Shown here piece by piece: positions 3,938 through 20,274 of a stretch of 37,717 nt of DNA. Each line of letters starts with the position of its first letter. Within the stretch, counting starts at the first letter, position 1. Both the position numbers and the translations under genes were made by a program. The notes beneath the pieces were generated by a model. The model searched no databases. It was not told where the DNA came from and saw only the letters and a list, made by a program, of their open reading frames with translations. Origin of the DNA: Candidatus Zambryskiibacteriota bacterium. GTDB taxonomy: Bacteria; Patescibacteriota; Minisyncoccia; Phycocordibacterales; DATGWK01. Location: the NCBI GenBank assembly GCA_023264565.1, contig JAHFLV010000006.1:1-37717 (forward strand). Direction: 5' to 3'.

Positions 3938-4006
3938 TTTAAAATTTATTTGATTGTGCCGCGATGGGCGTTTCGGAGTTGTCTTTTGCAGGGCGCTTTT
4001 TATTAA

Positions 4007-4038
4007 ACAAAAAACCTGCCCCACTCCTCGAAGGCAGG
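4007..4038 (-). terminator. Terminator-like hairpin inside the rpsS leader (candidate attenuator)
   Basis: CCTGCC/GGCAGG stem, 12-nt loop, followed by TTTTTTG on the minus strand. Lies between the promoter at 4087-4114 and the rpsS ATG at 3937. Confidence 0.4.
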
Positions 4039-4086
4039 CCCGAACTGCTGGTAAAGCAATGTGGGCGCGCTAATTGCGTAGGGAGA

Positions 4087-4114
4087 ATAGTAGCAGAAGA
4101 TGAAAAAGAGTCAA
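4087..4114 (-). promoter_or_regulatory. Sigma70-like promoter upstream of rpsS
   Basis: Minus strand reads TTGACT-16 nt-TACTAT with the CTTCTGC block abutting the -10. Confidence 0.6.
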
Positions 4115-4152
4115 GAATTTGGCCTCCATTCCCTTCTTATAATTTAGTAGGC

Positions 4153-4179
4153 AAACAAAAAGCGTCCAAAATGGACGCT
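4153..4179 (-). terminator. Intrinsic terminator of the 57-aa peptide gene
   Basis: AGCGTCCA/TGGACGCT 8-bp perfect stem, 3-nt loop, TTTTTG tail on the minus strand, 25 nt after the stop. Confidence 0.75.
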
Positions 4180-4203
4180 GTGTGGAACAAAAGAACCTGT
4201 AGA

Positions 4204-4377
4204 TCACTTACTGAACTTGGCGTGGAAGTAGGCCTGAACGAAAGCCGGATACCAGTCGGGAGGTGCCAGGACGACGTAGGCCAACAGAAGTATGCTTGTA
4301 AATGCAATGGCCGCACCAACCAGAAACCCCCGACGAATCCCCGAGTCTTCCTTCTTTGGGTCATATCCCCTTGCCAT
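4204..4377 (-). CDS. 57-aa single-pass membrane peptide (hypothetical)
   Basis: ATG at 4377 is preceded by AGGAG 9 nt upstream. One hydrophobic helix (FLVGAAIAFTSILLLAYVVLA). It has its own TTGACT-16-TATAAT promoter and its own 8-bp hairpin terminator. Confidence 0.6.
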   Translation of the reverse strand: MARGYDPKKEDSGIRRGFLVGAAIAFTSILLLAYVVLAPPDWYPAFVQAYFHAKFSK

Positions 4378-4446
4378 GGACAGAATCTCCTTACTATCTT
4401 TGGTCAGAGTGTTACACCCAGGCACAAGCCACAGGTTTCTAGCATC

Positions 4447-4474
4447 ATTATACACTTATAAAAGTAAAAGTCAA
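4447..4474 (-). promoter_or_regulatory. Promoter of the 57-aa peptide gene
   Basis: Minus strand reads TTGACT-16 nt-TATAAT (consensus -10), about 65 nt upstream of the ATG at 4377. Confidence 0.65.
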
Positions 4475-4499
4475 TAGTTCCTGAAAGTTGATCTTCCAA

Positions 4500-4523
4500 C
4501 AAAAAAGCCTCATTTCTGAGGCT
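4500..4523 (-). terminator. Intrinsic terminator after rplB
   Basis: AGCCTCA/TGAGGCT 7-bp stem, TTTC/GAAA loop, U6 on the minus strand, about 30 nt after the rplB stop. Confidence 0.7.
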
Positions 4524-4551
4524 TTTTTGTTCACTTTTTCGTGAGGAGATT

Positions 4552-5403
4552 TTATTGTTCTTTGCCTTTCTTTCCGACTCGGCGTCTTGAAACAATGAAG
4601 ACGTTTGAGTATTTCTTTGGAGTTCGGCTCTTCTGACCCTTTCCTGTTGGGCGGCCAGTTCGAGTCATCGCTCGTCGGCGACCTCGGCCTTGTCGGCCTT
4701 CGCCTCCACCGTGCGGATGATCGACTGGGTTCATAGCAGTACCTCGGACAGTCGGACGAATACCCAACCATCGGCTGCGACCTGCTTTTCCAAGCTGAAC
4801 GAGTCGGTTTTCGTCGTTTGAAACTTCACCAATTGAAGCCCATGCGAGTTCTGAAACTTTTCGAACTTCAGTTGAAGGAAGTTTGACGTGAGCAAAACCT
4901 GAATCTTTTGCAATGATTTCTGCAAAGTTACCTGCTGAACGAGCCATTTTGGCACCGGAACCCGCTTTGAACTCTACGTTGTATATAAATGTTCCCAATG
5001 GAATGTCTTTGATTGGAAGACGATTTCCTGGAGTGATCGGAGCGTTTTCTGCAGCAAGGATTTCTTGGCCAGGTCGAACGTTCTTTGGGAGAAGGATGTA
5101 TCGCTTTTCGCCGTCTTTGTAGTTTACGAGACCAATGAAACCCGTTCGATTTGGATCGTATTCAACGGTTTTAACAACACCAGGAACGCCGATTTTATCC
5201 ATTCGAAAATCGATTTCTCGGAAGAGTCGTTTGTGACCACCTCCCTTATGATTCATGGTGATTCGGCCGAAATTGTTGCGACCCATCGGACGTCGGAAAC
5301 CATGAGTAAGTTTCTTATGAGGTTCGTTGGTAGTGATCACTGCTCGGTAAGAGACAGTAGTCATATTTCGGCGTGATTTTGTTGTTGGTCGATAGCGTTT
5401 CAT
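4552..5403 (-). CDS. rplB: 50S ribosomal protein L2
   Basis: 283 aa; GRNNFGRITMNHKGGGHKR and MNPVDHPHGGGEGR signatures of L2. Confidence 0.96.
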   Translation of the reverse strand: MKRYRPTTKSRRNMTTVSYRAVITTNEPHKKLTHGFRRPMGRNNFGRITMNHKGGGHKRLFREIDFRMDKIGVPGVVKTVEYDPNRTGFIGLVNYKDGEKRYILLPKNVRPGQEILAAENAPITPGNRLPIKDIPLGTFIYNVEFKAGSGAKMARSAGNFAEIIAKDSGFAHVKLPSTEVRKVSELAWASIGEVSNDENRLVQLGKAGRSRWLGIRPTVRGTAMNPVDHPHGGGEGRQGRGRRRAMTRTGRPTGKGQKSRTPKKYSNVFIVSRRRVGKKGKEQ

Positions 5404-5438
5404 GTTTGTTTGGTCGTGTTGTTGTAGGCGGCAGTGTA

Positions 5439-5906
5439 TTACACAATTTCAATCTTGTCACCTTCTTTAAGGTACACATAGGCTTTCTTAATACCAGATG
5501 AAACACCTGATCGGCCTCGGTAGAAAACGTTCTTGCTTGGAGTTCGAGCAATAGAAACCTTTACTGGTCGAACCTTAAACATTGAGAAAATTGCTTCTCG
5601 AACGCTTACTTTGTTTGCATCATGAGCGATTTCGAAAACAAAAACGTTTTCAGCATCAGCTTTGTAAGATGACTTTTCAGTAACTCGTGGGCGAAGAATG
5701 ACTTTGCTGTAATTTACTGCTGGGTTTGAAGAAACCTGAGCATCTGCAACAACAGCAGGAGTTTTTGCAACTTTTTCTTTTGGAGCTTTTACAGCTTTTG
5801 TCTTAGCAACTTTTGCCTTAGGTGCAGCATCAGTTTTTGCTGTTTTTGCAGCCTTTGGCTTTACATCCTTTGCTTCGTCTTTTGTTTTTTTGCTAAAAAG
5901 TCCCAT
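5439..5906 (-). CDS. rplW: 50S ribosomal protein L23 with Lys/Ala-rich N-terminal extension
   Basis: The C-terminal ~95 aa (ILRPRVTEKS...VFVFEIAHDANKVSVREA...KKAYVYLKEGDKIE) is L23. The first ~60 aa are AKxK repeats. Confidence 0.9.
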   Translation of the reverse strand: MGLFSKKTKDEAKDVKPKAAKTAKTDAAPKAKVAKTKAVKAPKEKVAKTPAVVADAQVSSNPAVNYSKVILRPRVTEKSSYKADAENVFVFEIAHDANKVSVREAIFSMFKVRPVKVSIARTPSKNVFYRGRSGVSSGIKKAYVYLKEGDKIEIV

Positions 5907-5907
5907 A

Positions 5908-6627
5908 TTATTTGGTTAGTTTTCCAGAAATAGCCTTTACTGATTCAGCTGGGTTCACAAACATAACATATTTGTATTTTGCGAGTTCAAGCGGACTCAA
6001 GTTTCGAGCTTCGTTTACTTTTACGTTTGAGAAGTTTCGGAAACTCTTTTCGATTGCTTCGTTCTTGTTTTCGAGAGCCATAACAAGCGCGTTAGATTTC
6101 TTTCCAGAGATTCTCTTGTACGCTTCGATCTTGCCGATTGAACCAAAAATTTCTTTTGCGTCTTTTGTCTTTGGACCAGACATAGCGAGTGAATCCATGA
6201 AGATCACTTCACCCTGCTGCATCTTTCGAGAAAGAATGGTGTACAAAGCTTTTGCACGCATCTTTTGGTTAACCTTTCGGTCGAAGTTCTTGTCGTTTCG
6301 TGGACCATGAGTAACACCTCCACCAACCCAGATTGGAGATCGAGTAGAACCGTGTCGAGCGCGACCAGTTCCCTTTTGCTGCCAAGGCTTCTTTCCGCCT
6401 CCGCGAACGTCACCTCGCATTTTTGTATGCGCAACAGTTTTTCGGATTGAAGTCTGAAGAGACTGGAGCACCTGATGAACCAAGTCGGCATTCCAAGGCA
6501 AACCGAATACATCCTGAGGAAGTTCGTACTTTCCTACTTCAGCGCCTTTTGAGTTGTAGACAATCGCGTCTTTTGCGACTTTAGCGACTTTGGCGACTTT
6601 TTTTGTTTTTGTAGTTTCGTTTTTCAT
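5908..6627 (-). CDS. rplD: 50S ribosomal protein L4
   Basis: 239 aa; RGGGKKPWQQKGTGRARHGS motif of L4. Lies between rplC and rplW. Confidence 0.95.
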   Translation of the reverse strand: MKNETTKTKKVAKVAKVAKDAIVYNSKGAEVGKYELPQDVFGLPWNADLVHQVLQSLQTSIRKTVAHTKMRGDVRGGGKKPWQQKGTGRARHGSTRSPIWVGGGVTHGPRNDKNFDRKVNQKMRAKALYTILSRKMQQGEVIFMDSLAMSGPKTKDAKEIFGSIGKIEAYKRISGKKSNALVMALENKNEAIEKSFRNFSNVKVNEARNLSPLELAKYKYVMFVNPAESVKAISGKLTK

Positions 6628-6644
6628 ATCAGTATGGATCGGTA

Positions 6645-7262
6645 TTAGCCGGTTACTTCAACAAGAGTGCCTCGGCGACCTGGAACAGCACCACTCACAA
6701 CGAGAGTGTTTGTTGCTGGATCAGCCTGAAGAACAATGAGGTTCTTTACGGTAACACGATCGCCACCAGTTCGGCCGGCCATTCGCATACCCTTTGGAAC
6801 TTTGTTTCGGAGACCTCCGCCGATAGAACCTGGTTCTCGCTCAGAATGTTTCTGACCGTGGCTTCGTGGACCTCCTTTGAAACCGTGTCGCTTCACAACA
6901 CCCTGGAAACCTTTTCCTTTAGAAGTTGCAGAAACAGCAACCGTATCCCCTGGAGCAAAGACGGTTACATCGAGTTTGTCACCAACGTTCTTTGGAGCAT
7001 TTTCAACTCCTTCAGTTCGGAATTCTTTGAGATGAGCAAAAGTACCGTAAGCCTTTGTGTGACCAACTTCTGATTTGCTGAGGTCCTTTTCTTTCTTTGA
7101 ACCAAAACCAATCTGGATAGCTTCGTAGCCATCTTTTTCTTTTCCCTTCACCTGAGTGACGGTCATAGGACCTGACTGGAGGACGGTTGCTGAAAAGACT
7201 TCGCCGTTATCAGCAAACACCTGCGTCATATGCAGTTTTTTAGCAAGAATGAATTTCATCAA
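6645..7262 (-). CDS. rplC: 50S ribosomal protein L3
   Basis: 205 aa; KKLHMTQVF...SKGKGFQGVVKRHGF motifs of L3. The start could be the second Met (7259). Confidence 0.95.
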   Translation of the reverse strand: MMKFILAKKLHMTQVFADNGEVFSATVLQSGPMTVTQVKGKEKDGYEAIQIGFGSKKEKDLSKSEVGHTKAYGTFAHLKEFRTEGVENAPKNVGDKLDVTVFAPGDTVAVSATSKGKGFQGVVKRHGFKGGPRSHGQKHSEREPGSIGGGLRNKVPKGMRMAGRTGGDRVTVKNLIVLQADPATNTLVVSGAVPGRRGTLVEVTG

Positions 7263-7263
7263 T

Positions 7264-7632
7264 TTACATTATTTTCACTTCAATCGATACACCAGACGGC
7301 AAGCTCAAGTTTGTCAGGGATTCAATGATTTTCTGACTTGGATTGATGATATCAATCAAGCGCTTGTGAATGCGCATTTCGAACTGTTCACGAGCGTTTT
7401 TGTAGACGAACGCCGCGCGGTTTACTGTGTACTTTTTGATCTCTGTTGGCAACGGGATCGGTCCAACAATTTCTGCATCATAACGAAGCGCAGTATCGAT
7501 GATCTGCTTTACAGACAAATCAAGGATCTTGTATTCGTACGCTCGCACACGAATGCGGAGTTTAGAAACACCAGAAGCAGCCGCCTTAGGCGCTTTGACT
7601 TTCTTTTCTTTTGCTGCTGCTTTAGTTGCCAT
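7264..7632 (-). CDS. rpsJ: 30S ribosomal protein S10
   Basis: [14 protein letters not shown]...GPIPLPT...HKRLIDI is canonical S10, with a ~20-aa Lys/Ala N-terminal tail. Confidence 0.95.
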
Positions 7633-7658
7633 GTTTTTAAAAGATCAATTAATAGGTA

Positions 7659-8849
7659 TTAGGCGATGATTTTTGTTACGACGCCGGCACCAACAGTCTT
7701 ACCACCTTCGCGAATCGCGAATCGCTGCTTCTCTTCGAGAGCAACAGGGGCAATAAGCTTCACTTTGAAAGTGATGGTATCACCTGGCATAACCATTTCA
7801 ACGTTTGCAGGAAGTTCGACTTCACCAGTAACGTCAGTGGTTCGGATGTAGAACTGTGGTTTGTAACCCTTAAAGAATGGAGTGTGGCGACCACCTTCTT
7901 CTTTCTTCAAGATGTAGACTTCTGATTCGAATTCAGTATGAGGCTTCACTGAACCTGGTTTTGCAATAACCTGACCTCGAGAAATGTCTTCTTTCTTCAA
8001 ACCTCGGAGAAGAATACCTGCGTTGTCGCCGGCCATACCTTCGTTAAGAGATTTGTTGAACATTTCGATACCAGTAACAACAGTAGCTGATGTTGGTTTG
8101 AGACCGACAAGATCAACAGGTTCACCAACCTTTACCTGACCTCGTTCGATACGACCAGTAACAACAGTACCTCGGCCTTCAATTGAGAAGACGTCTTCGA
8201 TAGGCATAAGAAACGGCTTGTCGAGTTCTCGGACAGGCTGTGGGATGTAGGTATCGAGAGCGTTAGCGAGCTCAAGAACTTTCTGAGACCATTCGTCTGT
8301 GTTGTCTTTTGCTTCAAGAGCCTTAAGGCCTGAACCTCGGATAACAGGAGCATTTTTACCATCAAAGTTGTACTTTTCGAGGAGGTCTCGAACTTCTTCT
8401 TCAACGAGGTCGATCAATTCCTTATCAGGAACCATATCGCACTTGTTAAGGAAAACGATGATCTTAGGTACGCCGACCTGCTTTGCGAGAAGAACGTGTT
8501 CTCGAGTCTGTGGCATAACACCGTCAGTAGCAGCAACAACAAGGATAGCGCCGTCCATCTGAGCAGCACCGGTAATCATGTTCTTGATGTAGTCAGCATG
8601 ACCAGGAGCGTCGATGTGAGCGTAATGACGAGTATCTGTCTCGTATTCCTGATGAGAAAGATTGATCGTAATACCACGGGCCTTTTCTTCAGGAGTGTTG
8701 TCGATAGCGTCGACACCTTTAATAACAGCCTTTTTTCCCGCTCGGTTAAGAACGTTAAGGATAGCTGCAGTAAGGGTTGTTTTGCCGTGATCAACGTGGC
8801 CGATAGTACCTACGTTAACGTGTGGCTTTGAACGATCAAAATTTGCCAT
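7659..8849 (-). CDS. tuf: Elongation factor Tu
   Basis: 396 aa; [17 protein letters not shown] and NKCD GTPase motifs. Full-length EF-Tu. Confidence 0.98.
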
Positions 8850-8965
8850 AATTTTTACTAAAAATTAACTTTTAAATAATATTTGGTTTCGTTTCTTTTA
8901 TGCCAGACACCGAGAGTATTTCGTAGTGTGCCAAAACAAAAACGACGCTAAAAGCGGTACACAGC

Positions 8966-8993
8966 ATAGTATCAAAGGAGCTAAATTAGTCAA
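8966..8993 (-). promoter_or_regulatory. Sigma70-like promoter upstream of tuf
   Basis: Minus strand reads TTGACT-16 nt-TACTAT, immediately after the U-run of the preceding terminator. Confidence 0.6.
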
Positions 8994-9017
8994 GAAAAAA
9001 CCCCGCATTATGCGAGG
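8994..9017 (-). terminator. Intrinsic terminator of Cys-rich gene 1
   Basis: Minus strand CCTCGCA-TAA-TGCGGGG 7-bp stem (one G-U pair) followed by TTTTTT. Confidence 0.7.
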
Positions 9018-9062
9018 CGTTGTAGCTTTTTGGTAGACACCGCTGTGTTCATTGCCAGTTAT

Positions 9063-9602
9063 TTATGGACTGGCGGGTTGATTACAGCACAAACCGAGCA
9101 ATGCCTTGAGGTTGTTCTGGAGAACTCCGAGGGCGTGCTGCGTGCGATCCTCAACATCCTGAAGACAACTCACAAGTGCGGGCGATGGGATCGGGTTATA
9201 TGTCAGACAATAACAATAGGCGTCGTACCAATTCTGGTTAAGCTCTTCGAGGTCCTTGTAGTATTGAATAATCTCAGCCTTCACACAGTCACTGTCCAGA
9301 ATCCCTCCTGATGGACAAATGAAATTAGGGTCGGCGCTCAAAACCCATAAGAAAAAGTCCGTGTGGTACTGGGGCAAGAACGCGCAGGGATCGTCTGCGT
9401 TTTCAAGTGCTTTCACAAGGAGACCAACCCTTTGGGTGGGGTCGGCCTCCTTTAGTGCCTGGGCAACAAAGTACGAACGCTCGCTGTTCGGCACCAACAC
9501 CCTATCTGGCGGCATGGACACCACCTGGGCCGAGACCGAACGAGACAACGTTGCGACGACCGAAACCAGAAGAAGAACACGAAGATTAAGCTTCAAACTC
9601 AT
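9063..9602 (-). CDS. Secreted Cys-rich protein, family member 1 (hypothetical)
   Basis: ATG at 9602 is preceded by GAGGAG (7-nt spacing). Signal peptide ends VSA|QVV. Eight Cys including a CYC motif. By-eye homology to the ORF at 10812-11351. Own promoter and terminator. Confidence 0.7.
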   Translation of the reverse strand: MSLKLNLRVLLLVSVVATLSRSVSAQVVSMPPDRVLVPNSERSYFVAQALKEADPTQRVGLLVKALENADDPCAFLPQYHTDFFLWVLSADPNFICPSGGILDSDCVKAEIIQYYKDLEELNQNWYDAYCYCLTYNPIPSPALVSCLQDVEDRTQHALGVLQNNLKALLGLCCNQPASP

Positions 9603-9675
9603 GTGCAAACTCCTCAAAATGCGCGTCTCTCTCGAGAGATCGCTGTGTTAAAGAACGATTTGGATTCGACCCAGA

Positions 9676-9704
9676 ACACTACCAGGAATTCCCTTGATGG
9701 TCAA
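9676..9704 (-). promoter_or_regulatory. Promoter of Cys-rich gene 1
   Basis: Minus strand reads TTGACC-17 nt-TAGTGT, about 70 nt upstream of the ATG at 9602. Confidence 0.45.
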
Positions 9705-9715
9705 AAAACAAAACA

Positions 9716-10459
9716 TTAGAAACCGACAACCGGAGGAATTAAATCTCTCGTGGGTGGTGTGGTTATTGTTGGACGAACAGGTGGTATAGGACATTCTTGT
9801 GGCATAAGTTTCAAGGTTTTTGGGTCAACAGTATAACAAAACCTTTCGATTTCAGGAGAAATCGTTGGATCTACGAGATGACAATCGACTCGGAAAAGAC
9901 CAGACGGATCGCCCGGTAGACTCGGTTTTAACTCACATTTAACCTTCGGCAAGTAAGAACTTGGGATATCAAAAAACGGTGTTGTGACCTCTATTTTGCA
10001 AGGCTTGTCAGATGCTTCACAAGTAATTTTAATGACGTAGCAAACACTCGTGCGGTTAATAATCGTACAAAGACGAAACTCTTGTTTGCCATGTCGCACA
10101 TCCCCTTCCTTCAAACAGATTCCTGGAACATGAACACCGTTAGGTGCTCCTGGAAAATTTGGCACTGGAAAATATTGTGCGGGTGGCTGACACCAGTCTG
10201 GTGCGGCTGGGGTTGTTGGTGGTGTGGAGGATGGCTTCTCAGGGGGTTTTGTTGTATCAGCCTTTGTGGCTGTAGTAAACGAAAGCAACGAGGTAGCTGA
10301 TGAATTTGTGGAGAGAATAACAGAGGCCACTGCTTTTGAGTATATTTCTTTCTCAGCAACATTTCCCGAAGTGAGACGGACGGTAAGGTTTCCGGCAAAC
10401 ACAAGACATACAAAAACAATGGCAGCGAGTGAAAAAAATGAAACTAATTTTTTATTCAT
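9716..10459 (-). CDS. Secreted protein with Pro/Thr linker and Cys-rich C-terminal domain (hypothetical)
   Basis: 247 aa. N-terminal hydrophobic signal/anchor (LVSFFSLAAIVFVCLVFAG), a KPPEKPSSTPPTTPAAP linker, then about 10 Cys in the C-terminal 150 aa. Confidence 0.65.
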   Translation of the reverse strand: MNKKLVSFFSLAAIVFVCLVFAGNLTVRLTSGNVAEKEIYSKAVASVILSTNSSATSLLSFTTATKADTTKPPEKPSSTPPTTPAAPDWCQPPAQYFPVPNFPGAPNGVHVPGICLKEGDVRHGKQEFRLCTIINRTSVCYVIKITCEASDKPCKIEVTTPFFDIPSSYLPKVKCELKPSLPGDPSGLFRVDCHLVDPTISPEIERFCYTVDPKTLKLMPQECPIPPVRPTITTPPTRDLIPPVVGF

Positions 10460-10499: not shown

Positions 10500-10525
10500 C
10501 AAAAAACCCGCCAACAAGTGGCGGG
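10500..10525 (-). terminator. Intrinsic terminator of the lipoprotein gene
   Basis: CCCGCCA/TGGCGGG 7-bp stem, 5-nt loop, U6 on the minus strand. Confidence 0.7.
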
Positions 10526-10549
10526 TTTGAACGGACGGATACAAAAACC

Positions 10550-10738
10550 TCAGTTCTTGGGCAGATCGATGTGTTGATGCGTTGCCGTGACCTCGGCAGT
10601 CTTTTGGTCAGCGACAGCCTTGGTTGCCAGGAACAGCGTCGGATCGTTCTTGGCCATACAGCCCGGAAAGAAGGTGACGGTAGCGGTCATCAGAACGACA
10701 ACACCTGTCCACGTTAGAATTTTTATAACAACCTTCAT
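10550..10738 (-). CDS. 62-aa putative lipoprotein
   Basis: ATG at 10738 with GGAG upstream. Signal peptide ends in the lipobox-like FFPG|C. Followed by a 7-bp GC hairpin plus U-run. Confidence 0.55.
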   Translation of the reverse strand: MKVVIKILTWTGVVVLMTATVTFFPGCMAKNDPTLFLATKAVADQKTAEVTATHQHIDLPKN

Positions 10739-10811
10739 ATGCGCTCCTCTCTTTCTGAGTATTTTGAATATGTACAACCTCTAAATATTATGTATTTATA
10801 TCTACATTGTG

Positions 10812-11351
10812 TCAAACGCACTCTCCATTCTTAACCAAATAAAAAACCCGCCTGGAGGCGGGGTGCTTTAAAGCACATGTTTCACATTCGATCAGGGTAA
10901 CACACCGTCTGGCACACAACTCGAGATCAGCATCCGCCGAACTGAGACAGTCCCCTAATTTCTGAGGATCGTCTTCGTAGATTTCTCGACAATCACACTG
11001 CCTATGGCGCCATGCATTGAGGGAGGTAATGAGGTCGGCCACGTACCGCGTACGAACGTCGTCGACACAGTCTGGATTCAGATGGTGCTTCGGTGCCTTA
11101 CAGGGAATATCGACCAACGCGTACGAAAGCCATTCCATGAACTTGGGATACGTCACCGGGTCATCATCGCAATAAAGCGTCGGCTCCATGAGCGAAACAG
11201 CATATTCAAAGAGCGCAGACTCAGAAACGAAGTGCGCCCCAACTGTCGGTGGTGGGGTGATGATCTGGGCCAAGGATTTTTGTCCTGGGAACAAGACCAT
11301 CGAGGCCGCAATCACACAAGCAAAAAACACGGGGCTTAACTTCTGACGCAT
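10812..11351 (-). CDS. Secreted Cys-rich protein, family member 2 (hypothetical)
   Basis: ATG at 11351 preceded by AGGAGTTTGTG (same RBS context as member 1). Signal peptide ends SLA|QII. Conserved DDP, DCV and CxC (CDC) positions shared with member 1. Own promoter. Confidence 0.7.
   Translation of the reverse strand: MRQKLSPVFFACVIAASMVLFPGQKSLAQIITPPPTVGAHFVSESALFEYAVSLMEPTLYCDDDPVTYPKFMEWLSYALVDIPCKAPKHHLNPDCVDDVRTRYVADLITSLNAWRHRQCDCREIYEDDPQKLGDCLSSADADLELCARRCVTLIECETCALKHPASRRVFYLVKNGECV
10838..10863 (-). terminator. Intrinsic-terminator hairpin lying inside the last ~17 codons of Cys-rich gene 2
   Basis: CCCGCC/GGCGGG 6-bp stem, 4-nt loop, TTTTTTATTT on the minus strand. The ORF stop is only reached at 10812. 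Confidence 0.6.
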
Positions 11352-11418: not shown

Positions 11419-11447
11419 ATGGTAGCAGAAGAAAAATAACTGGTCAA
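11419..11447 (-). promoter_or_regulatory. Promoter of Cys-rich gene 2
   Basis: Minus strand reads TTGACC-17 nt-TACCAT with the same CTTCTGC block as the promoters at 56-83 and 4087-4114. Confidence 0.55.
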
Positions 11448-11474
11448 TAAATATGTCGTACACAAAAACCCAAC

Positions 11475-11496
11475 AAAAAACCGGCTTTCACCGATC
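11475..11496 (-). terminator. Weak intrinsic terminator after fusA
   Basis: Minus strand AUCGGU-GAAA-GCCGGU (6 bp, two G-U pairs, GAAA loop) followed by UUUUUG. Confidence 0.45.
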
Positions 11497-11552
11497 TTTT
11501 GTTTTTCTTTAAAAATATTTGATCGCCCTAGAGACAATCTGCAATCGCGCGA

Positions 11553-13727: not shown

Positions 13728-13828
13728 AAGAAAACCGCTTTTCAGATGAGCGCGATAAGTCCTGCTGGACTTTCGCTACTCTCGGCGCCTTCGCGCCTCC
13801 GGAAACTCATCTTCAAAGCAGTTTTCTT
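13728..13828 (-). promoter_or_regulatory. About 100-nt Y-shaped structured RNA element in the rpsG-fusA spacer
   Basis: A 23-nt outer stem (21 pairs plus a tandem G-A/A-G mismatch) encloses two GC-rich hairpins (GGCGC-GAAG-GCGCC; GCGAAAGUCC-AGCA-GGACUU(A)UCGC). No U-run follows. It ends about 33 nt before the fusA ATG. Confidence 0.55.
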
Positions 13829-13856
13829 GCCAAAAGACTTAGCAATTATATAAAAC

Positions 13857-14327: not shown

Positions 14328-14360
14328 AAAGATGATGAATGACTAAATTATTTATTGAGT

Positions 14361-14771
14361 TTAGGCCTTAGGTCTCTTAGTACCGTAGACGGATCGGCTG
14401 GTTCGGCGGTTTTCAACGCCAGATGCGTCGAGCTTACCTCGGACGATAGTGTATCGCACTCCGACGTCTTTGACACGACCTCCTCGGAGAAGAACGACTG
14501 CGTGCTCTTGAAGATTGTGACCAACACCTGGGATGTAGGCAGTGACTTCCATACCGTTTGTAAGGCGAACTCGGGCGATCTTTCGGATAGCTGAGTTAGG
14601 TTTTCTAGGAGTTTTTGTCGTAACTTTCACGCAAACACCTCGTTTGAAAGGTGATGGGAAACTTGCTGGGCGATTCTTCAAAGTATTGAAACCACGAGAA
14701 AGAGCGGCCGCTTTTGATTTGCGAACCTTGATGACTCGTCGTCGCTTAACTAATTGATTTATCGTTGCCAT
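14361..14771 (-). CDS. rpsL: 30S ribosomal protein S12
   Basis: 136 aa; TINQL...[22 protein letters not shown]...[16 protein letters not shown] motifs of S12. Confidence 0.97.
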
Positions 14772-14831
14772 GTAGCTAGACGAGTACTTTACTAAATAAT
14801 CGAAAAATACGCAAGAAAATCAGCACCCCCT

Positions 14832-14862
14832 AAAAAGAAAGGCCCCGCATCCATGCAGGGCC
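14832..14862 (-). terminator. Intrinsic terminator of the 87-aa Cys-rich ORF
   Basis: Minus strand GGCCCUGC-AUGGAU-GCGGGGCC followed by UUUCUUUUU. Confidence 0.7.
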
Positions 14863-14888
14863 CAATGGTGGAAACAGAACTCACTGAT

Positions 14889-15152
14889 TCAGGCAGTCCT
14901 CCGAAGACCAGATGGATTGGATGAAGGACTGGTCATCACGAACAGGCTTTCAAAACCATACCCCCACCTACGAAGATTGGCGGCGAGGAAATGATCTGAA
15001 CAAGACTCACAGCGTTCTGCGTGAGCCTTTGTGGTCTGGAGACATCTTCCCCTTAACCGCCCTTGCATGAGGCAGTTGAACCTCAAAAAAAACTGATCGC
15101 AGGTGCAACCGCCGATTCGCTTATCCGGATTGGACACGGGCTGAGTCTTCAT
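14889..15152 (-). CDS. 87-aa Cys-rich protein without signal peptide (hypothetical)
   Basis: ATG at 15152 with GGAG about 10 nt upstream. Pattern CxC...C...C...CxxC. Followed by a strong 8-10 bp GC hairpin plus U-run. Confidence 0.45.
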   Translation of the reverse strand: MKTQPVSNPDKRIGGCTCDQFFLRFNCLMQGRLRGRCLQTTKAHAERCESCSDHFLAANLRRWGYGFESLFVMTSPSSNPSGLRRTA

Positions 15153-15238
15153 TGATCTCTTCTCCTGTAAACGGTGACGAACACACAAAGTGTTTCTATT
15201 TCTTCTTTTAATATACTCCCCCGCCCCAGATATACAAC

Positions 15239-15856
15239 TTAGATATACAAACCGGTTAATAGAACAAAAAACTTGGCGATGATTGGTGAAACGGCACCCC
15301 AGAAAAAGAAAACAAAGAATAAAACAATAAAAATTCCATAACGCTCAAGAAAAACTCGGCCTTTATTCCAGCCAATGTTAAAAATAGAGAAAAAGATTTT
15401 TGAACCATCGAGTGGCGGGATTGGGATGAGGTTGAAAGTCGCAAGAACGATATTGATCAAGACGATATAACTCGTAATTTTCAGAATATTCGCATTCTCA
15501 ATAAAACCAGTTGAAATACCGAAGCGGATGAGACCACCAAAAACGATTGCGATGACAATATTAGAAAGCGGGCCAGCAAAAGCCACGATCGCCTCACCCC
15601 AACGCTGATTACGAAGATTGTAGACATTATATGGAACTGGTTTTGCCCAACCGATCAAAAAACCCGAACCCGAGATAAAAAGAAGCAGCGGCAAGATAAT
15701 CGAACCGAATGGATCAATATGCTTTAAAGGATTCATGGTCAAACGACCTTCGAGCCGAGCGGTTGGGTCACCGAGCGAGTCTGCCGCGTACCCATGGGCC
15801 ACTTCATGGATAATGACAGAGAAGACAAGAATGAAGATTTCGAAGATAAAGTCCAT
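15239..15856 (-). CDS. Site-2 protease family (M50) membrane metalloprotease
   Basis: HEVAHG (HExxH) in the first TM helix, multi-pass hydrophobic profile, and NLIPIPPLDG motif. The start at 15856 is preferred because the 15931 start would abut the divergent rpmB ATG; it is uncertain. Confidence 0.8.
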   Translation of the reverse strand: MDFIFEIFILVFSVIIHEVAHGYAADSLGDPTARLEGRLTMNPLKHIDPFGSIILPLLLFISGSGFLIGWAKPVPYNVYNLRNQRWGEAIVAFAGPLSNIVIAIVFGGLIRFGISTGFIENANILKITSYIVLINIVLATFNLIPIPPLDGSKIFFSIFNIGWNKGRVFLERYGIFIVLFFVFFFWGAVSPIIAKFFVLLTGLYI

Positions 15857-15931
15857 AAAAATATGCAATGTCTGCTTGATTAATTTGATACCTATGATAG
15901 CATGCTTGTCACGACTCAATAGAGTAAACAT

Positions 15932-16174
15932 ATGGCAAAAATCTGCCCAGTTACAAAAAAAGGTTCAATGGTAGGAGGTGGCTTCAGTAACCGAACTCGA
16001 GCTACGCAGTTTAACCCTACCGGAAAAACTCGCCGCTACCCTAACCTCCAGAAGCGCCGCATCTACATTCCTGAACTCAAAAAACACGTCCGAGTTACTC
16101 TTTCAGCTCGAGGTATCCGAACCGTCAACAAGCAAGGTTCTCTCAAGGCTCTCCGAACCGCAGGCGTTATTTAA
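15932..16174 (+). CDS. rpmB: 50S ribosomal protein L28
   Basis: 80 aa; MAKICPVTKKGSMVGGGFSN..R..NLQ...VRVTLSARGIRT pattern of L28. Confidence 0.9.
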   Translation: MAKICPVTKKGSMVGGGFSNRTRATQFNPTGKTRRYPNLQKRRIYIPELKKHVRVTLSARGIRTVNKQGSLKALRTAGVI

Positions 16175-16223
16175 ATACAGCAGCCGATCGAGCACATGGC
16201 TCAAAATGCGCAACGACACGAAA

Positions 16224-16246
16224 GCTCCCTTCTGGGGAGTTTTTTG
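16224..16246 (+). terminator. Intrinsic terminator after rpmB
   Basis: CTCCC-TTCT-GGGAG hairpin followed by TTTTTTG. Confidence 0.6.
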
Positions 16247-16332
16247 TTGTCTTTGAACTGATAAAATAGACCGAGAAAATTACAGAGTACCGCAATAAAA
16301 GAATTGAGAGTGGAACAGAAAGGAGGAAAAAA

Positions 16333-16665
16333 TTGGCGAGATATTACACACGTGGAAGTTGGTGCAAATACTTTGGCGGACTAGGAATTATCGAATGCCA
16401 CGGAATTGATGACGAAAGAATGCCCGTGCACACTGTGTGTGGCGGAGAACTTATCGAAATCATCAACAGACGAACAGTCTGGACGGATGGCATCGGTCAA
16501 AGTCCAGCGGAAACGGGTGAAATAGTCGAGGTCGCAATTATTCTTTGTACTATATGCGACAGAAGAGTTCGGCTAGTCGACGATCTACAATCAATCTTCA
16601 GATCACAATTTTTTCTAACTGAACTTCCAGTCTGCATCCCTACCCGACGTCCGATCACGTCCTAA
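16333..16665 (+). CDS. Hypothetical 110-aa protein (TTG start)
   Basis: AAAGGAGG lies 6 nt upstream of the TTG at 16333. Several Cys/His (CKY..ECHG, VCGG, CTIC). Hairpin terminator directly downstream. Confidence 0.55.
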   Translation: MARYYTRGSWCKYFGGLGIIECHGIDDERMPVHTVCGGELIEIINRRTVWTDGIGQSPAETGEIVEVAIILCTICDRRVRLVDDLQSIFRSQFFLTELPVCIPTRRPITS

Positions 16666-16666
16666 G

Positions 16667-16704
16667 CCCCATAACAGAATTGTCTGTGTGGGGTGTTTTT
16701 ATTT
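16667..16704 (+). terminator. Intrinsic terminator after the 110-aa ORF
   Basis: CCCCATA(A)CAGA / TCTGTGTGGGG stem with one bulge, followed by TGTTTTTATTT. Confidence 0.55.
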
Positions 16705-16717
16705 AAAAGGCACACTC

Positions 16718-17596
16718 TCATTCAACTCGCGTAAATTTTTTCCCATCGCTTTTCATAATAATCGTGCCAAGCTGATCGGTACGAAAAAGTTTCAAAGGAA
16801 ATTTGGCGAGGGTCGCTAATGTTTCATCATTTGGATGACCATATTTATTTTCTTTGCCGCAAGAAATCACGGCGTATTGAGGATTCACCATTTTTACAAA
16901 CTCTTCGCTCGACGAAGTTTTCGATCCGTGATGCCCCGCTTTTAAAATATCACTTTCGAGTCGCAAGAACTGCGGCGTGCTGCTGTCAGTAATACTAAGC
17001 AGATGATTTTCTACACCAATCGGCGCGTCGCCCGTAAGCATGACTTCGGTTTCACCATACGTAAGACGCGCAACGATCGAACCATCGTTCGTAGTTTCCA
17101 TAGACACATCGCGGTCCGGAAATAAAACAGTCAGGATAACTTCCCTGCCCGGTGTATCATCCAAAATTATTTTCATACCACGTCGAGCCAGCGTTTTTGG
17201 AATTTCTTTTTCTTTAATTAATTCTTGAAGCGTTGTATGAGTCAGTGTTTTGCTTTGTGTTCCCGGTTCCAACACGCTTCCAACATCGAATCGTTTTAAA
17301 ATATCAATAAAGCCAGCAATGTGGTCCTTGTCGGGATTCGTAATAACGATCATGTCGAGGGATTTGTCGTACCACGGCATGACAGCACCTAATTCATGGA
17401 GCACTTTGGCATCGGGCCCGCCATCCACCAGGATCTGATTACCGTTCGGGGCCTCAATAAAAATTGCATCACCCTGACCGATATCGAGAAAAGCCACGGT
17501 GAGCTCGTGCCGAGCTGATTCAAGATACACTGCATGCCAAATCGCGCCGTTTGTTACGGCAAGCAATGTCATCAGGCCAATAAAAAACTTTTTCAT
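16718..17596 (-). CDS. Membrane-anchored metallo-beta-lactamase fold protein (ComEC C-terminal-domain type)
   Basis: N-terminal anchor MKKFFIGLMTLLAV. LDIGQGDAIFIE, NPDKDHIAGF and AGHHGSKTSSS motifs as in the ComEC/Rec2 MBL domain. Confidence 0.8.
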   Translation of the reverse strand: MKKFFIGLMTLLAVTNGAIWHAVYLESARHELTVAFLDIGQGDAIFIEAPNGNQILVDGGPDAKVLHELGAVMPWYDKSLDMIVITNPDKDHIAGFIDILKRFDVGSVLEPGTQSKTLTHTTLQELIKEKEIPKTLARRGMKIILDDTPGREVILTVLFPDRDVSMETTNDGSIVARLTYGETEVMLTGDAPIGVENHLLSITDSSTPQFLRLESDILKAGHHGSKTSSSEEFVKMVNPQYAVISCGKENKYGHPNDETLATLAKFPLKLFRTDQLGTIIMKSDGKKFTRVE

Positions 17597-17641
17597 GACA
17601 GTTTTTCTTGCTTTTTACAGGCGTGATATACTCGGTGCATT

Positions 17642-18262
17642 ATGTATAAATACACAGAACAAAAGTTTAGTATTCCGGAGTTAAAAGGAATCTCAAAAAA
17701 GGCTATAGAAGAACACGTAAAGCTCTACGCGGGCTATGTTAAAAATGCGAATTTAATTAACGAAAAAATTGTCGAGTACAAAACCGACAGCGAAAAAAAT
17801 GCGTATGCGCTCGGTGAACTTCAGCGCCGTTTTTCTTTTGAATTCAACGGCATGCGCAATCATGAATATTATTTCAAAAGTCTCGAAGGTGGCGCGCAGG
17901 CGCTCGGCACCAACAGCCCACTTCGTGCTCAGATTGAAAAAGATTTTGCAGATTTTGCCACAAATGGCATGAGCGCATTCGACGGCTGGCTTGCATCTTT
18001 CAAGGCCATCGCCCTTACCCGCGGCATCGGCTGGGCAATGCTGTACTACGATCAGCACACAGGCACACTCACCCACGCTTGGGTTGATGAGCAACATTTG
18101 GGTCAGTTGAACGGTCTTCAGCTCGTGCTTGGTCTCGATATGTGGGAACACTCTTTCCTCTTCGATTATGTGCCTGCTGACAAGAAAAAATACGTTGAAG
18201 CCTTTTTCGAAAACCTCAACTGGTCAGTAATCGAAAAGAATTTTGTTGAGGCAACAAAATAA
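17642..18262 (+). CDS. Fe/Mn-family superoxide dismutase (divergent)
   Basis: 206 aa; N-terminal His (IEEH), NGMRNHEYYF and LGLDMWEHSF motifs match the four SOD metal-ligand positions. Confidence 0.75.
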   Translation: MYKYTEQKFSIPELKGISKKAIEEHVKLYAGYVKNANLINEKIVEYKTDSEKNAYALGELQRRFSFEFNGMRNHEYYFKSLEGGAQALGTNSPLRAQIEKDFADFATNGMSAFDGWLASFKAIALTRGIGWAMLYYDQHTGTLTHAWVDEQHLGQLNGLQLVLGLDMWEHSFLFDYVPADKKKYVEAFFENLNWSVIEKNFVEATK

Positions 18263-18295
18263 TCAGGAGCGATTAAAAAATTAAAAAAACAAAAG

Positions 18296-18324
18296 CCGCC
18301 ACGAAAACCTCGGGCGGTTTTTTG
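18296..18324 (+). terminator. Terminator after the SOD gene
   Basis: CCGCC/GGCGG stem with a 12-nt loop followed by TTTTTTG. Confidence 0.45.
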
Positions 18325-18343
18325 TTGCCTAAATTTCACAAAA

Positions 18344-18367
18344 GAAAAACCCCGCGAATGCGCGGGG
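18344..18367 (-). terminator. Intrinsic terminator of the 313-aa secreted-protein gene
   Basis: CCCCGCG/CGCGGGG 7-bp stem, 4-nt loop, U5 on the minus strand. Confidence 0.7.
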
Positions 18368-18390
18368 TTTTGGGGGTATTTGAAAAATGC

Positions 18391-19332
18391 TCACCAGAAC
18401 CAGCCCATGAGCCCATATCCCACCTCATCACACCAGTCGTTGAGAGTTTTCTGTGGACTGGCGCCGGGGTTGATAGGATCGAGCGGCCACTTGAAGAAGG
18501 GCGGCACCTCGGGAAACACGGTGATGTTGTATATCCGTGTCCGGTCACCATCGCCGGAGATTGTTGTATCCCAACGTTCGGGAAGAAAGGTGTCAGTGTT
18601 GATGTAGAGATACTGAGAGACAGCGTCGCCGCCCGCTCGAATAAAACTGACATCGAACACATAGCACCCATGACCGCGCAAAGCTGCACGCCGCTCCTCG
18701 ACGGGGTTACGAACTCCTCCGGTGATCTTCTCTAAGAACACTTCCACCATGTCCGTGCTCGACTTGTATGCGGGCACATTTGCTGAAGGCTCTCCGAGCC
18801 AACTCAGTGTCAGCGTCGAGAGCGAGCAGTCCAATTCTGAACTGCCATGGAAGCTATACGGGCCGAATGACGTGTCGCTTTTGTAGTAATAGAACTTGCC
18901 GTTGTCCGCAGAACGATACTCGGACACATCACCGTCCATACCACCAACAAGCGAAATGGCCATGATGAGTTTGTCGCCTTCGTAGACCCGAGAATGCATC
19001 ATGCCTGGTGCCATGTAGCAAACTGACTTGATCGTCACGGGCTCCTCGAAAGTCCTCCAGCCGTCCCTCAAGCCGGGAAAACCGGACGTGATAACAGACT
19101 CGAGCTTGAGAAACTTGATCCCCGAACGGAGCTTATCCCGAACGCGATCTGCGATATCAGTGTTCGAGAGCTCCTTTGAGGCTTCTGTCTTGGGAACCAG
19201 ATCGGTCTTTTCCGATTTCTCTGGATTTGCCATCACCACGGGATTGGGTTCAAATCGAGCCACCACGAGCGACTCACCCGTCTGCTTTGGGACCACACAG
19301 AACATCAAAACAAATGCGATGAAGAACTTCAT
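18391..19332 (-). CDS. Secreted 313-aa protein (hypothetical), GC-rich island
   Basis: Signal peptide MKFFIAFVLMFCVV. GAAGGGAG RBS. TTGACA-17-TACTTT promoter and a 7-bp GC hairpin terminator. No family recognised. Confidence 0.65.
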   Translation of the reverse strand: MKFFIAFVLMFCVVPKQTGESLVVARFEPNPVVMANPEKSEKTDLVPKTEASKELSNTDIADRVRDKLRSGIKFLKLESVITSGFPGLRDGWRTFEEPVTIKSVCYMAPGMMHSRVYEGDKLIMAISLVGGMDGDVSEYRSADNGKFYYYKSDTSFGPYSFHGSSELDCSLSTLTLSWLGEPSANVPAYKSSTDMVEVFLEKITGGVRNPVEERRAALRGHGCYVFDVSFIRAGGDAVSQYLYINTDTFLPERWDTTISGDGDRTRIYNITVFPEVPPFFKWPLDPINPGASPQKTLNDWCDEVGYGLMGWFW

Positions 19333-19397
19333 GTGATACTCCCTTCAAAAGAAGCGGTGTTCCAAAAAGTCTGACAAATAACTACGCTCTGTAATAA

Positions 19398-19426
19398 AAA
19401 GTACGCTGTTAAATCACGAATGTCAA
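19398..19426 (-). promoter_or_regulatory. Promoter of the 313-aa secreted-protein gene
   Basis: Minus strand reads TTGACA-17 nt-TACTTT, directly after the upstream terminator. Confidence 0.55.
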
Positions 19427-19431
19427 GCATA

Positions 19432-19455
19432 GAAAAACCCCGCATTTCTGCGGGG
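19432..19455 (-). terminator. Intrinsic terminator of the 223-aa secreted-protein gene
   Basis: CCCCGCA/TGCGGGG 7-bp stem, 4-nt loop, U5 on the minus strand. Confidence 0.7.
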
Positions 19456-19482
19456 TCTGTTGTGTATAAAACGAGTGGAGAC

Positions 19483-20154
19483 TCACTTCATGACGACGAG
19501 TGGCGCCTGTCCCGCGTCGCGCACGATCTTGTTCTGACAGGTGGCGGAGTACGAGCTGTTTTCGTTCTGCTTACAGCTCTTCTGATCTTCACAGTCGCGC
19601 GGACTGCAGGACCTCACATCCACTGACATGTGGGTTCGAATGCACTTGCATTCCGTACCCATCACCTTCCCTGTGTCCACGTTGATAAGCAGGTGAATGG
19701 GGTCGGTGCCGTCCAGGTTCGCATTGTCGATCGTCAGACCAGTGTTGCCCGAAATGCCGAAGTTGAAGACCATCACCTCGCCGGTGGTGGGGCTCATGCC
19801 AACGTAGGAAATGTTCGTATCGGTGTAGCTGGACAGGTCGCTCGTCTCGAGCAACTCGCCGTTCACGAAGACGTACAGGGTGCCGTCGGACCAGTAGTGA
19901 TCCACGTAGTTACCGTGGAAATTGCCGCTGTGAATCCAGGGACCCTCGGTTGTACGAGCGTCGAGCATCTGACTGACCGTGACCCCGGGGATTGCCGGCA
20001 AATCCGGAACCGCCGTCGCTGTGGACTTCATGCTGACCGTCGGCCCGTTGATCGGGGTGACGATCTGGGCCGAAGTCTGTCGGCCGAAAACCGCCGTAAC
20101 CAAAACCGCAATCATGAAAGACGCCAAGGACTGCAAACTGATACGCTTCTTCAT
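19483..20154 (-). CDS. Secreted 223-aa protein with Cys-rich C-terminus (hypothetical), GC-rich island
   Basis: GGAGG RBS. Signal peptide ends TSA|QIVTP, like the two fusA-tuf island paralogues. Beta-rich middle region. C-terminal CKC plus four further Cys. Hairpin terminator. Confidence 0.6.
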   Translation of the reverse strand: MKKRISLQSLASFMIAVLVTAVFGRQTSAQIVTPINGPTVSMKSTATAVPDLPAIPGVTVSQMLDARTTEGPWIHSGNFHGNYVDHYWSDGTLYVFVNGELLETSDLSSYTDTNISYVGMSPTTGEVMVFNFGISGNTGLTIDNANLDGTDPIHLLINVDTGKVMGTECKCIRTHMSVDVRSCSPRDCEDQKSCKQNENSSYSATCQNKIVRDAGQAPLVVMK

Positions 20155-20274
20155 AGGAACCTCCAGTTACCACCATGGCTAGCCCAAACTACACAGCTTG
20201 GGCAAAAAACTAGGAAGGGACTCCGACGAACGCATTAACCTCAATCCTTTTACTTTCTACCTATAGCCTATACC

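Follow-up and report, generated by a model that had tools for sequence, protein, structure and literature searches.

Here, we report on a stretch of 37,717 nucleotides (37.7 kb; "the window", i.e. the whole stretch of DNA that was analyzed) from Candidatus Zambryskiibacteriota bacterium (assembly GCA_023264565.1, contig JAHFLV010000006.1). In it, nine small open reading frames (ORFs), c57, c62, c87, c110, c180, c184, c223, c247 and c313, lie at five junctions of a translation-gene backbone, and we show that junction-specific variable gene content inside this backbone is clade-wide. The host is an uncultivated member of the Paceibacteria (Parcubacteria) in the Candidate Phyla Radiation (CPR)/Patescibacteria; the closest elongation factor G (EF-G) proteins among 185,579 species genomes are at most 84% identical and come from metagenome-assembled genomes (MAGs) of Nomurabacteria, Zambryskibacteria, Kaiserbacteria and 'Paceibacterota'. 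According to ORF listing and Pfam scans, the window is a gene array that lies nearly all on the minus strand, with HIT, sod and rpmB as the plus strand exceptions. The backbone reads comEC–sod–MBL–rpmB–M50–rpsL–rpsG–fusA–tuf–rpsJ–rplCDWB–rpsS, then rplV, rpsC and onward to rplE, where MBL is an MBL-fold hydrolase and M50 a protease. comEC is preceded in the array by type IV pilus genes (PilB, PilC, pilins), tpiA, pgk, HIT, recJ and rnhA. As had been claimed in a preliminary description of this DNA, the inserts are co-directional, i.e. all nine follow the direction of their upstream neighbour. A predicted N-terminal signal or anchor is present in seven of the nine, the exceptions being c87 and c110.

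At rplB|rpsS, one small gene lies between a terminator and the promoter of rpsS:

4498..4531, bidirectional: intrinsic terminator after rplB, AACAAAAAAGCCTCA-GAAA-TGAGGCTTTTTTGTT, with 15-nt arms that are 100% complementary
4447..4474, minus: sigma70-like promoter of c57, TTGACT-16-TATAAT, 11/12
4204..4377, minus: c57, 57 aa, single-pass membrane protein; Shine-Dalgarno sequence (SD) AAGGAG, ATG at 4377, TGA stop, G+C content at third codon positions (GC3) 0.60
4161..4179, minus: c57 terminator
4087..4114, minus: rpsS promoter, TTGACT-16-TACTAT with TG, resembling the tuf and c180 promoters
4012..4041, minus: hairpin and T-run with an 11-bp stem before the rpsS start (3937), without an Rfam match

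The last hairpin is possibly a leader or attenuator rather than a gene terminator. c57 has neither a homolog nor a Pfam match, and its support comes from its signals alone; an 83-aa reading with a GTG start was rejected because the promoter would fall inside it. On the plus strand, a 165-aa ORF (3964-4461) lies antisense over the c57 region, and the public gene caller picked this ORF and not c57.

At fusA|tuf, four inserted genes (c180, c62, c247 and c184) with their signals lie between the fusA terminator and the tuf promoter, listed here in the direction of transcription:

11472..11503, minus: fusA terminator
11419..11447, minus: c180 promoter, TTGACC-17-TACCAT with TG
10812..11351, minus: c180, 179 aa, putatively secreted, 12 Cys, SLA|QIITPPP; GC3 0.57, TGA stop
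10787..10815, minus: c62 promoter, TTGACA-17-CATAAT, 11/12
10550..10738, minus: c62, 62-aa lipoprotein-like protein (…TFFPGC), also 62 aa in the ENA assembly; GC3 0.62, TGA stop
10504..10528, minus: c62 terminator, AAACCCGCCA-CTTGT-TGGCGGGTTT
9716..10459, minus: c247, 247 aa, with N-terminal anchor, Pro/Thr-rich linker and 11 Cys; GC3 0.33, TAA stop, no obvious SD
9676..9704, minus: promoter-like site of c184, TTGACC-17-TAGTGT, found by eye and under the scan threshold
9063..9602, minus: c184, 179 aa, putatively secreted, 8 Cys, SVSA|QVVSMPP; GC3 0.59
9000..9018, minus: c184 terminator, …GCATAATGCGGGGTTTTTT
8966..8993, minus: tuf promoter, TTGACT-16-TACTAT with TG

An additional terminator hairpin (10847-10862) lies inside the 3' end of c180. 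c180 and c184 are paralogs (26% identity, 5 Cys aligned) and their 5' regions are alike (TTGACC … CATTTnnAGGAGTTTG … ATG). An AlphaFold2 (AF2) model of c180/c184, made from a two-sequence alignment, was all-alpha with a pLDDT of 53 and was excluded from the fold search. In an exact-sequence look-up, c180 with an ATG start is on record, while c180 with a GTG start and the EF-G are absent. Among 5.8 billion proteins, searches with c180, c223 and c247 found no protein other than the respective query.

The preliminary description had named four sites, rplB|rpsS, fusA|tuf, M50|rpsL and comEC|sod. All four hold the ORFs described, and a fifth site, rpmB|MBL with c110, had been overlooked. M50|rpsL and rpmB|MBL carry:

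14889..15152, minus: c87, 87 aa, 6 Cys (CxC … CxxC), without signal peptide; SD AGGAGA, GC3 0.55, TGA stop
14840..14863, minus: terminator between c87 and rpsL, 10-bp stem
16333..16665, plus: c110, SD AAGGAGG, TTG start, 5 Cys, GC3 0.41
16667..16703, plus: c110 terminator, CCCCA…TGGGG and T-run, found by eye

c87 is the least certain of the nine ORFs and was left uncalled by the public pipeline in the ENA assembly, in which c110 is 81 aa. Finally, the comEC|sod site carries a pair of genes:

19483..20154, minus: c223, first of the pair, 223 aa, putatively secreted, TSA|QIVTP, with CxC…C…C…C…C at the C-terminus; GC3 0.79, TGA stop
19437..19456, minus: c223 terminator, ACCCCGCA-GAAA-TGCGGGGT and T-run
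19398..19426, minus: promoter-like site of c313, TTGACA-17-TACTTT, found by eye
18391..19332, minus: c313, second of the pair, 313 aa, exported; GC3 0.64, TGA stop
18346..18371, minus: c313 terminator, AAAACCCCGCG-CATT-CGCGGGGTTTT, 11-bp stem

The minus strand terminator of c223 was missed in a first scan, in which the stem over-extends into the T-run, and was recovered in a second. Over c223, the public gene caller picked a 202-aa antisense ORF on the plus strand (19630-20238). The antisense calls at c223 and c57 are likely mis-annotations that result from the high GC3 of these two inserts. c180 and c223, which are otherwise unrelated proteins, are alike in 17 of 18 nt over the signal-peptide cleavage site (11260-11275 and 20060-20075, minus; GGCCCAGATC[A/G]TCACCCC) and also match over 9 nt (TGATTGCGG) in the hydrophobic core; this could reflect leader exchange, gene conversion or chance.

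A search of 1.84 billion representative proteins found 33 distant homologs of c313, and the c313 family has no significant match in Pfam or in a profile search of PDB sequences. The AF2 model of c313 (pLDDT 82.9) gave 49 PDB matches at E≤1e-3 in Foldseek, and the top matches were all LolA, RseB, LprG or VioE (E down to 1.5e-6, probability 1.0, TM-scores of ~0.35-0.55, ~0.5 if target-normalised, and ~10% identity). The predicted fold of c313 is LolA/RseB/LprG-like. While the predicted fold is what c313 has in common with the LolA/LolB/RseB/LprG superfamily, it is longer, has an extra helical insert and is accompanied every time by a small Cys-rich secreted partner. Specifically, in every readable homolog context (L083, L087 and L171), a c223-family gene directly precedes the c313-family gene; the c223-family partner is ~200 aa with a signal peptide and has kept the CxC…C…C…C…C tail, and c223 itself has three homologs. 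c223 and c313 are a conserved two-gene module of a putatively secreted Cys-rich protein and a predicted LolA-like protein, and our analysis defines this module.

The inserts had been described as following one grammar at four sites, in which an upstream terminator is followed by a promoter, an SD, small exported ORFs, a terminator and a new promoter for the downstream gene. This grammar is complete at rplB|rpsS and fusA|tuf and incomplete elsewhere: no terminator was found after M50 or comEC, no promoter was found at scan level for c223, c87 or rpsL, and no SD was found for c247. An SD and a strong intrinsic terminator are present for most of the nine ORFs, and sigma70-like promoters and SDs individually precede c57, c62, c180, c184 and c313. 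The two best promoter matches (11/12) are found immediately upstream of c57 and c62, and c180, tuf and rpsS each have an extended -10 site upstream. In the region 3000-21000, there are 2.5 times as many terminator-like hairpins as in shuffles (49 vs 19.6±4.5), with no enrichment in the region 21000-37717 (21 vs 18.3±4.1), and the strongest terminators are directly 3' of inserted genes. Because the inserts end in strong terminators, tuf and rpsS would run from their own promoters. The terminators also resemble each other, as had been noted, to a modest extent: three are 62-73% identical over 37 nt, and there are 5 occurrences of GCGGGG with a T-run after it vs 1.6±1.3 expected. This resemblance is ordinary for GC-rich intrinsic terminators and does not extend into junction homology; the search for junction motifs and repeats gave only terminator and promoter look-alikes, with no direct or inverted repeats at the borders and no extended junction homology.

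At the protein level, the proposed shared start of the mature proteins holds up. Within the window, A|Q[IV][IV][TS][PM] is present only in c223, c180 and c184, the N-termini of which have by eye a positive charge, a hydrophobic core and a cleavage site (SLA|Q, VSA|Q and TSA|Q in c180, c184 and c223, respectively), and the motif is absent from the 2.64 million six-frame residues searched in the relatives. CxC is present in the same three proteins and in c87, also as described. Pfam searches with the inserted ORFs gave sub-threshold noise only. The idea of a single family of surface proteins or cassettes did not survive, as the ORFs belong to at least six unrelated families, with c180/c184 as paralogs and c223/c313 as a separate module.

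One could argue that these inserts are artefacts, i.e. that the assembly is chimeric or that the ORFs are spurious readings of non-coding spacers. c57, c62, c87 and c110 have no homologs, and the public pipeline called antisense ORFs for c223 and c57 and nothing for c87. However, the junction stretches are 99.99-100% identical in contigs from three other public assemblies made from different samples, and thus the architecture of the window is not an assembly chimera; moreover, host genes flank every insert on both sides on one contig. As for the ORFs, c313 has its homologs and a confident fold model, each of the three c223 homologs adjoins a c313-family gene, c180 and c184 share five aligned Cys, and GC3 of c223 is well above GC1 and GC2, which is a coding signature. 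We consider an artefact to be extremely improbable.

The composition of the inserts sets most of them apart from the host genes. The 35 host genes have a GC3 of 0.40±0.05 (range 0.24-0.49), and 34 of them stop at TAA or TAG. By contrast, GC3 is 0.55-0.79 in seven of the nine inserted ORFs (c57, c62, c87, c180, c184, c313 and c223; z-scores 3.0-7.6, Mann-Whitney p=0.0016), and TGA stops are found in six of the nine inserted ORFs vs one of the host genes (Fisher p=8e-5), with all six among the seven high-GC3 ORFs. Because these seven are foreign in composition, we infer horizontal acquisition or xenolog replacement in situ from GC-richer donors. Alternatively, the inserts could be vertical residents, i.e. 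old clade-specific genes that evolve fast and have diverged beyond recognition, with nothing mobile about them and a composition set by gene-specific constraint. The host-like composition of c247 and c110 fits such a scenario, while the GC3 values and TGA stops of the other seven are hard to obtain under one mutational regime. In sod (17642-18262, plus), which adjoins c313, the last ~80 codons have a GC3 of 0.55-0.68 vs 0.38-0.47 at the 5' end; in windows that are noisy, this rise may mark a recombination breakpoint.

To place the window in its clade, the junctions were surveyed in 80 species-representative genomes and 80 metagenome contigs (~160 loci). A junction with a gap >400 bp is referred to as expanded, relatives with an EF-G that is ≥70% identical as close, and loci with an EF-Tu that is ≤70% identical as distant. 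The order of the backbone is kept across the relatives, and its spacing is bimodal by junction, with gaps >400 bp in close relatives as follows:

fusA|tuf: 33/35, up to 9.3 kb
rplB|rpsS: 10/15
rpsG|fusA: 16/40
rpsJ|rplC: 12/32
M50|rpsL: 9/31
rpsL|rpsG: 1/39
tuf|rpsJ: 1/33
rplC|rplD, rplD|rplW, rplW|rplB and rpsS|rplV: 0

Thus, five hot junctions are expanded in 29-94% of the close relatives vs 0-3% at the cold ones, and from rpsS|rplV through rplX|rplE none of 281 junctions is expanded. The independent metagenome set shows the same pattern. Distant loci are mostly tight (rplB|rpsS 0/8, rpsG|fusA 0/9, fusA|tuf 3/12). As had been suggested, the sites are variable: in relatives, the same junctions can be empty, hold other genes or, occasionally, hold homologous ones. 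Co-directional terminator hairpins are present at 114 of 173 expanded junctions, so insulated inserts are the rule in the clade. They are also present at 37 of 197 unexpanded hot junctions vs 6 of 420 cold ones, and because terminators are already there at unexpanded hot junctions, the hot junctions look like pre-existing boundaries of transcription units. We infer that the array is not one super-operon and instead a string of short units, (rpsL rpsG), (fusA), (tuf rpsJ), (rplC-rplB) and (rpsS→rplE), and the interiors of these proposed units are almost never interrupted among the relatives.

In E. coli, the str operon comprises rpsL-rpsG-fusA-tufA and the S10 operon rpsJ-rplC-rplD-rplW-rplB-rpsS and further genes. 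The order of the backbone is the same in the clade studied here; however, terminators and promoters break up its clusters at rpsG|fusA, fusA|tuf, rpsJ|rplC and rplB|rpsS, and it is tuf and rpsJ that form a tight pair. The tuf and rpsJ promoters of a Saccharibacterium have been chosen as predicted strong promoters (PMC10633639).

Based on these data, we suggest that the hot junctions are gene-turnover hotspots without mobile elements that are located at the transcription-unit boundaries of the translation-gene backbone, and we put the probability of this reading at roughly 60%. In this model, the hot junctions would be permissive boundaries of independent transcription units at which an insertion is not lethal, and accessory lineage-specific genes would accumulate and turn over there. 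DNA would be taken up via the type IV pilus and ComEC machinery; ComEC, PilB, PilC and pilins are all encoded within the window. Homologous recombination in the highly conserved flanking genes would then swap or add inserts, and no dedicated recombinase would be needed. For Saccharibacteria, comEC-dependent transformation with homology arms of 0.5-1 kb has been demonstrated, and core com genes are, according to the authors, conserved across CPR phyla (PMC10633639).

The variability is not confined to ribosomal genes. Among junctions of the non-ribosomal backbone, gaps >400 bp are found at MBL|rpmB in 18 of 28 loci, at comEC|sod in 5 of 15 and at rpmB|M50 in 6 of 37. These numbers do not support a specific targeting of highly expressed essential genes, as in the preliminary description, since MBL|rpmB and comEC|sod vary just as much. 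The same numbers speak for ordinary genome flux between transcription units, which would be seen here only since the translation backbone is the synteny that survives, and in line with this the theme in the cargo is limited to a modest excess of N-terminal hydrophobic segments (37% of gap ORFs vs 24%, p=0.035). This account is largely compatible with turnover at unit boundaries rather than opposed to it, yet it leaves unexplained why close relatives expand rplB|rpsS and rpsJ|rplC, which are within the classical S10 operon, and distant bacteria never do. Ordinary flux is a serious possibility, though we would not call it probable.

How long do the inserts persist? No homolog of the window ORFs at fusA|tuf, rplB|rpsS and M50|rpsL was found in the ~160 related loci, and tblastn with all inserted-gene proteins against these loci gave nothing beyond the contigs with c313/c223 homologs. 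Among the relatives, L087 is nearest (72% identity on average over seven core proteins, range 57-90%). At comEC|sod, L087 likewise carries the c223/c313 pair, though with only 25-29% identity. Its M50|rpsL junction holds FolD (methylene-THF dehydrogenase/cyclohydrolase, 11766-12614) in place of c87, its rpmB|MBL, the site of c110 in the window, is tight, and its rnhA|comEC, which is tight in the window, has two additional genes. In several relatives, comEC directly abuts sod. Species pairs with 90% identical EF-G have few gap genes in common, and 166 of 217 gap ORFs are singletons. Where gap genes are common to genomes, they are at the same junction and 36-62% identical with an EF-G that is 78-91% identical; because they diverge more than EF-G and stay at the same junction, the inserts appear to persist vertically over a short range and to be replaced over longer distances.

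These shared genes and the c223/c313 homologs in L087 are also what would be expected of vertical residents, and CPR genomes hold tens of thousands of species-level unknown gene clusters (PMC9132574). Set against this, identity between the window and L087 is only ~29% for c313 and 57-90% for core proteins, each site is empty in many relatives and the c313 HMM has no member in the other 80 related loci. Together with the compositional evidence, this leads us to regard purely vertical residents as unlikely.

Whatever the size cut-off, 74% of the gap ORFs in the relatives are co-directional, and one third of the gap ORFs are compositionally deviant. Pfam searches with 148 of these ORFs matched 82 families. 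The cargo includes RelE/YafQ/HigB/ParE and HepT-MNT toxin-antitoxin modules, which are common, S41 and S8 proteases, short-chain dehydrogenases, DAG kinase, pyrimidine and folate enzymes, pilins, a holin and giant fn3/Big_7/PG-binding surface proteins. The inserted genes probably have roles in the cell envelope or in host interaction. In one relative, the Zambryskibacteria MAG L002, the 6.7-kb fusA|tuf gap encodes a VirD4/TraG-like coupling protein (T4SS-DNA_transf, TraG-D_C; 4997-7750) and a HigB-like toxin (3451-3708); it is the sole relative with a type IV secretion coupling protein, and this gap may be what is left of a conjugative element at the same hotspot.

The L002 gap and the common toxin-antitoxin modules, as well as the compact co-directional units with similar GC-rich terminators, could point to a dedicated site-specific cassette system of the integron type, or to decayed remnants of an integrative and conjugative element (ICE), prophage or transposon, as the source of the inserted units. 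However, in the ORFs scanned in the window no integrase, transposase or relaxase domain was found, Rfam and tRNA scans of the whole window gave no match and no tRNA/tmRNA target, and there are no repeats at the borders; on these grounds, a reading as genomic island, ICE or prophage was rejected. Likewise, no attC-like imperfect palindromes were found beyond short GC-rich hairpins with T-runs, and no longer repeat family is shared by the borders, which bears out the earlier statement that integrase and attC-like repeats are missing. No integrase or transposase is among the 25 most frequent Pfam families listed for the 148 gap ORFs. Like integron cassettes, the inserts are compact, co-oriented, mostly single-gene units of unknown function in arrays; unlike them, they have no IntI, attC/attI or common Pc promoter, they have their own promoter, SD and terminator where integron cassettes are promoterless, and they are dispersed over five sites. 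Accordingly, the integron-like logic once proposed for them is not tenable given a promoter per unit and no recombination sites, and we judge a cassette system or decayed element to be very improbable.

Several observations weigh against turnover hotspots at unit boundaries. First, promoter-like sites, which are called as consensus matches, are not enriched overall (21 vs 21.1 in shuffles), and the evidence for c57, c62, c87 and c110 consists of expression signals alone. Second, the comparison of hot and cold junctions is one within the backbone and does not establish that the hot ones are hotter than the average core-gene junction of the genome. Third, in noisy windows of 40 codons, those ends of fusA, tuf, rplB, rpsS, M50 and comEC that adjoin the inserts show no donor-like GC3 tract. 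Fourth, no recent transfer was caught, as in no case is a gap gene more similar than EF-G between two genomes. Fifth, strain variants with empty sites, sought via the EF-Tu, S12 and S19 of the window, gave identical contigs only, i.e. no occupied/empty polymorphism was found among same-species contigs. Finally, the syntenic pair at comEC|sod in L087 is also compatible with vertical descent.

A more far-reaching version of the hotspot reading is that, in competent CPR bacteria, the ultra-conserved translation genes might serve as universal homology arms, i.e. as an array of recombinase-free "landing pads" at the boundaries of transcription units, at which self-contained units for surface or secreted proteins, with a promoter and terminator of their own, would be exchanged across species and even genera. 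We offer this only as a tentative and rather doubtful extension. If it were true, epibionts with tiny genomes could renew their host-interaction repertoire without the machinery of mobile elements.

The closest parallel to gene turnover at fixed junctions is found in the hotspots described by Oliveira, Touchon, Cury & Rocha 2017 (PMC5635113). There, too, a few fixed intervals between core genes hold genes with fast turnover, many without integrases; hotspots without mobile elements show recombination at the core genes that flank them and are commoner in transformable species, and flank recombination and natural transformation are the proposed drivers (PMC5635113). However, those hotspots are seen within species, while the comparison here is between species and genera of an uncultivated class and flank recombination is a conjecture. 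Also, the junctions here lie inside the str/S10 cluster and include rpsG|fusA, fusA|tuf, rpsJ|rplC and rplB|rpsS, which are intra-operonic in model bacteria. A second parallel is SAR11 (Pelagibacter), in which Wilhelm et al. 2007 reportedly described a hypervariable region, HVR2, between rRNA genes. Both cases concern a streamlined genome with variable DNA within a conserved, highly expressed gene set; in SAR11 it is one large island at the rRNA locus, here it is several small islets between protein-coding translation genes. We found no prior description of insertions in CPR ribosomal clusters in the literature searched, which is not proof of novelty. Thus, hotspots without mobile elements are already known, and it is their recurrence as insulated units at fixed points of str/S10 in a whole CPR class that appears to be undescribed.

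The str/S10 cluster is regarded as the most stable gene order in bacteria, and syntenic ribosomal proteins on single contigs are the backbone of CPR phylogenomics. If tolerance of kilobases of variable genes at fixed points of this cluster is class-wide, the cluster would be transcribed as several independent units in these Patescibacteria, and contig-based marker extraction and binning should expect islets of foreign composition there. Such islets would also be an inexpensive place to search for secreted and surface proteins that are specific to a lineage and may mediate life as an epibiont. If exchange by way of the flanks is true, it would provide a concrete model of gene gain in bacteria with few mobile elements and active DNA uptake. 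The junctions also suggest themselves as natural "neutral sites" for engineering the genomes of CPR bacteria.

Some further features of the relatives and the window were noted. A conserved gene of ~260 aa lies on the opposite strand at rplB|rpsS in L014, L016, L017 and L018, two of which carry the label Kaiserbacteria. With 36-43% identity among the copies, head-on genes can thus also persist in the hotspot. In many relatives, the match to fusA spans 2.6-3.2 kb vs 2.14 kb, i.e. it is 0.5-1 kb longer (L008, L015, L025, L027, L037, L048, L054, L064, L065, L068, L069, L071, L072, L074-L076 and L078-L080), which suggests an intein or a large insertion within fusA in those lineages.

In the window, three large pilin-like or minor-pilin proteins adjoin PilB and PilC (27313-31372 and 34421-37139). 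p216 and p613 have an N-terminal methylation motif, p613 also has CarboxypepD_reg domains, and beyond the pilin-like genes lie s329 and s466, secreted Gly/Ser/Thr-rich proteins without a family match. Several ribosomal proteins have long Lys/Ala-rich extensions (5439-5906, 3581-3937, 3177-3560, 2489-3172 and 7264-7632): L23 has an N-terminal extension of ~60 aa, S19, L22, S3 and S10 have similar tails or heads, and L4 is 239 aa long.

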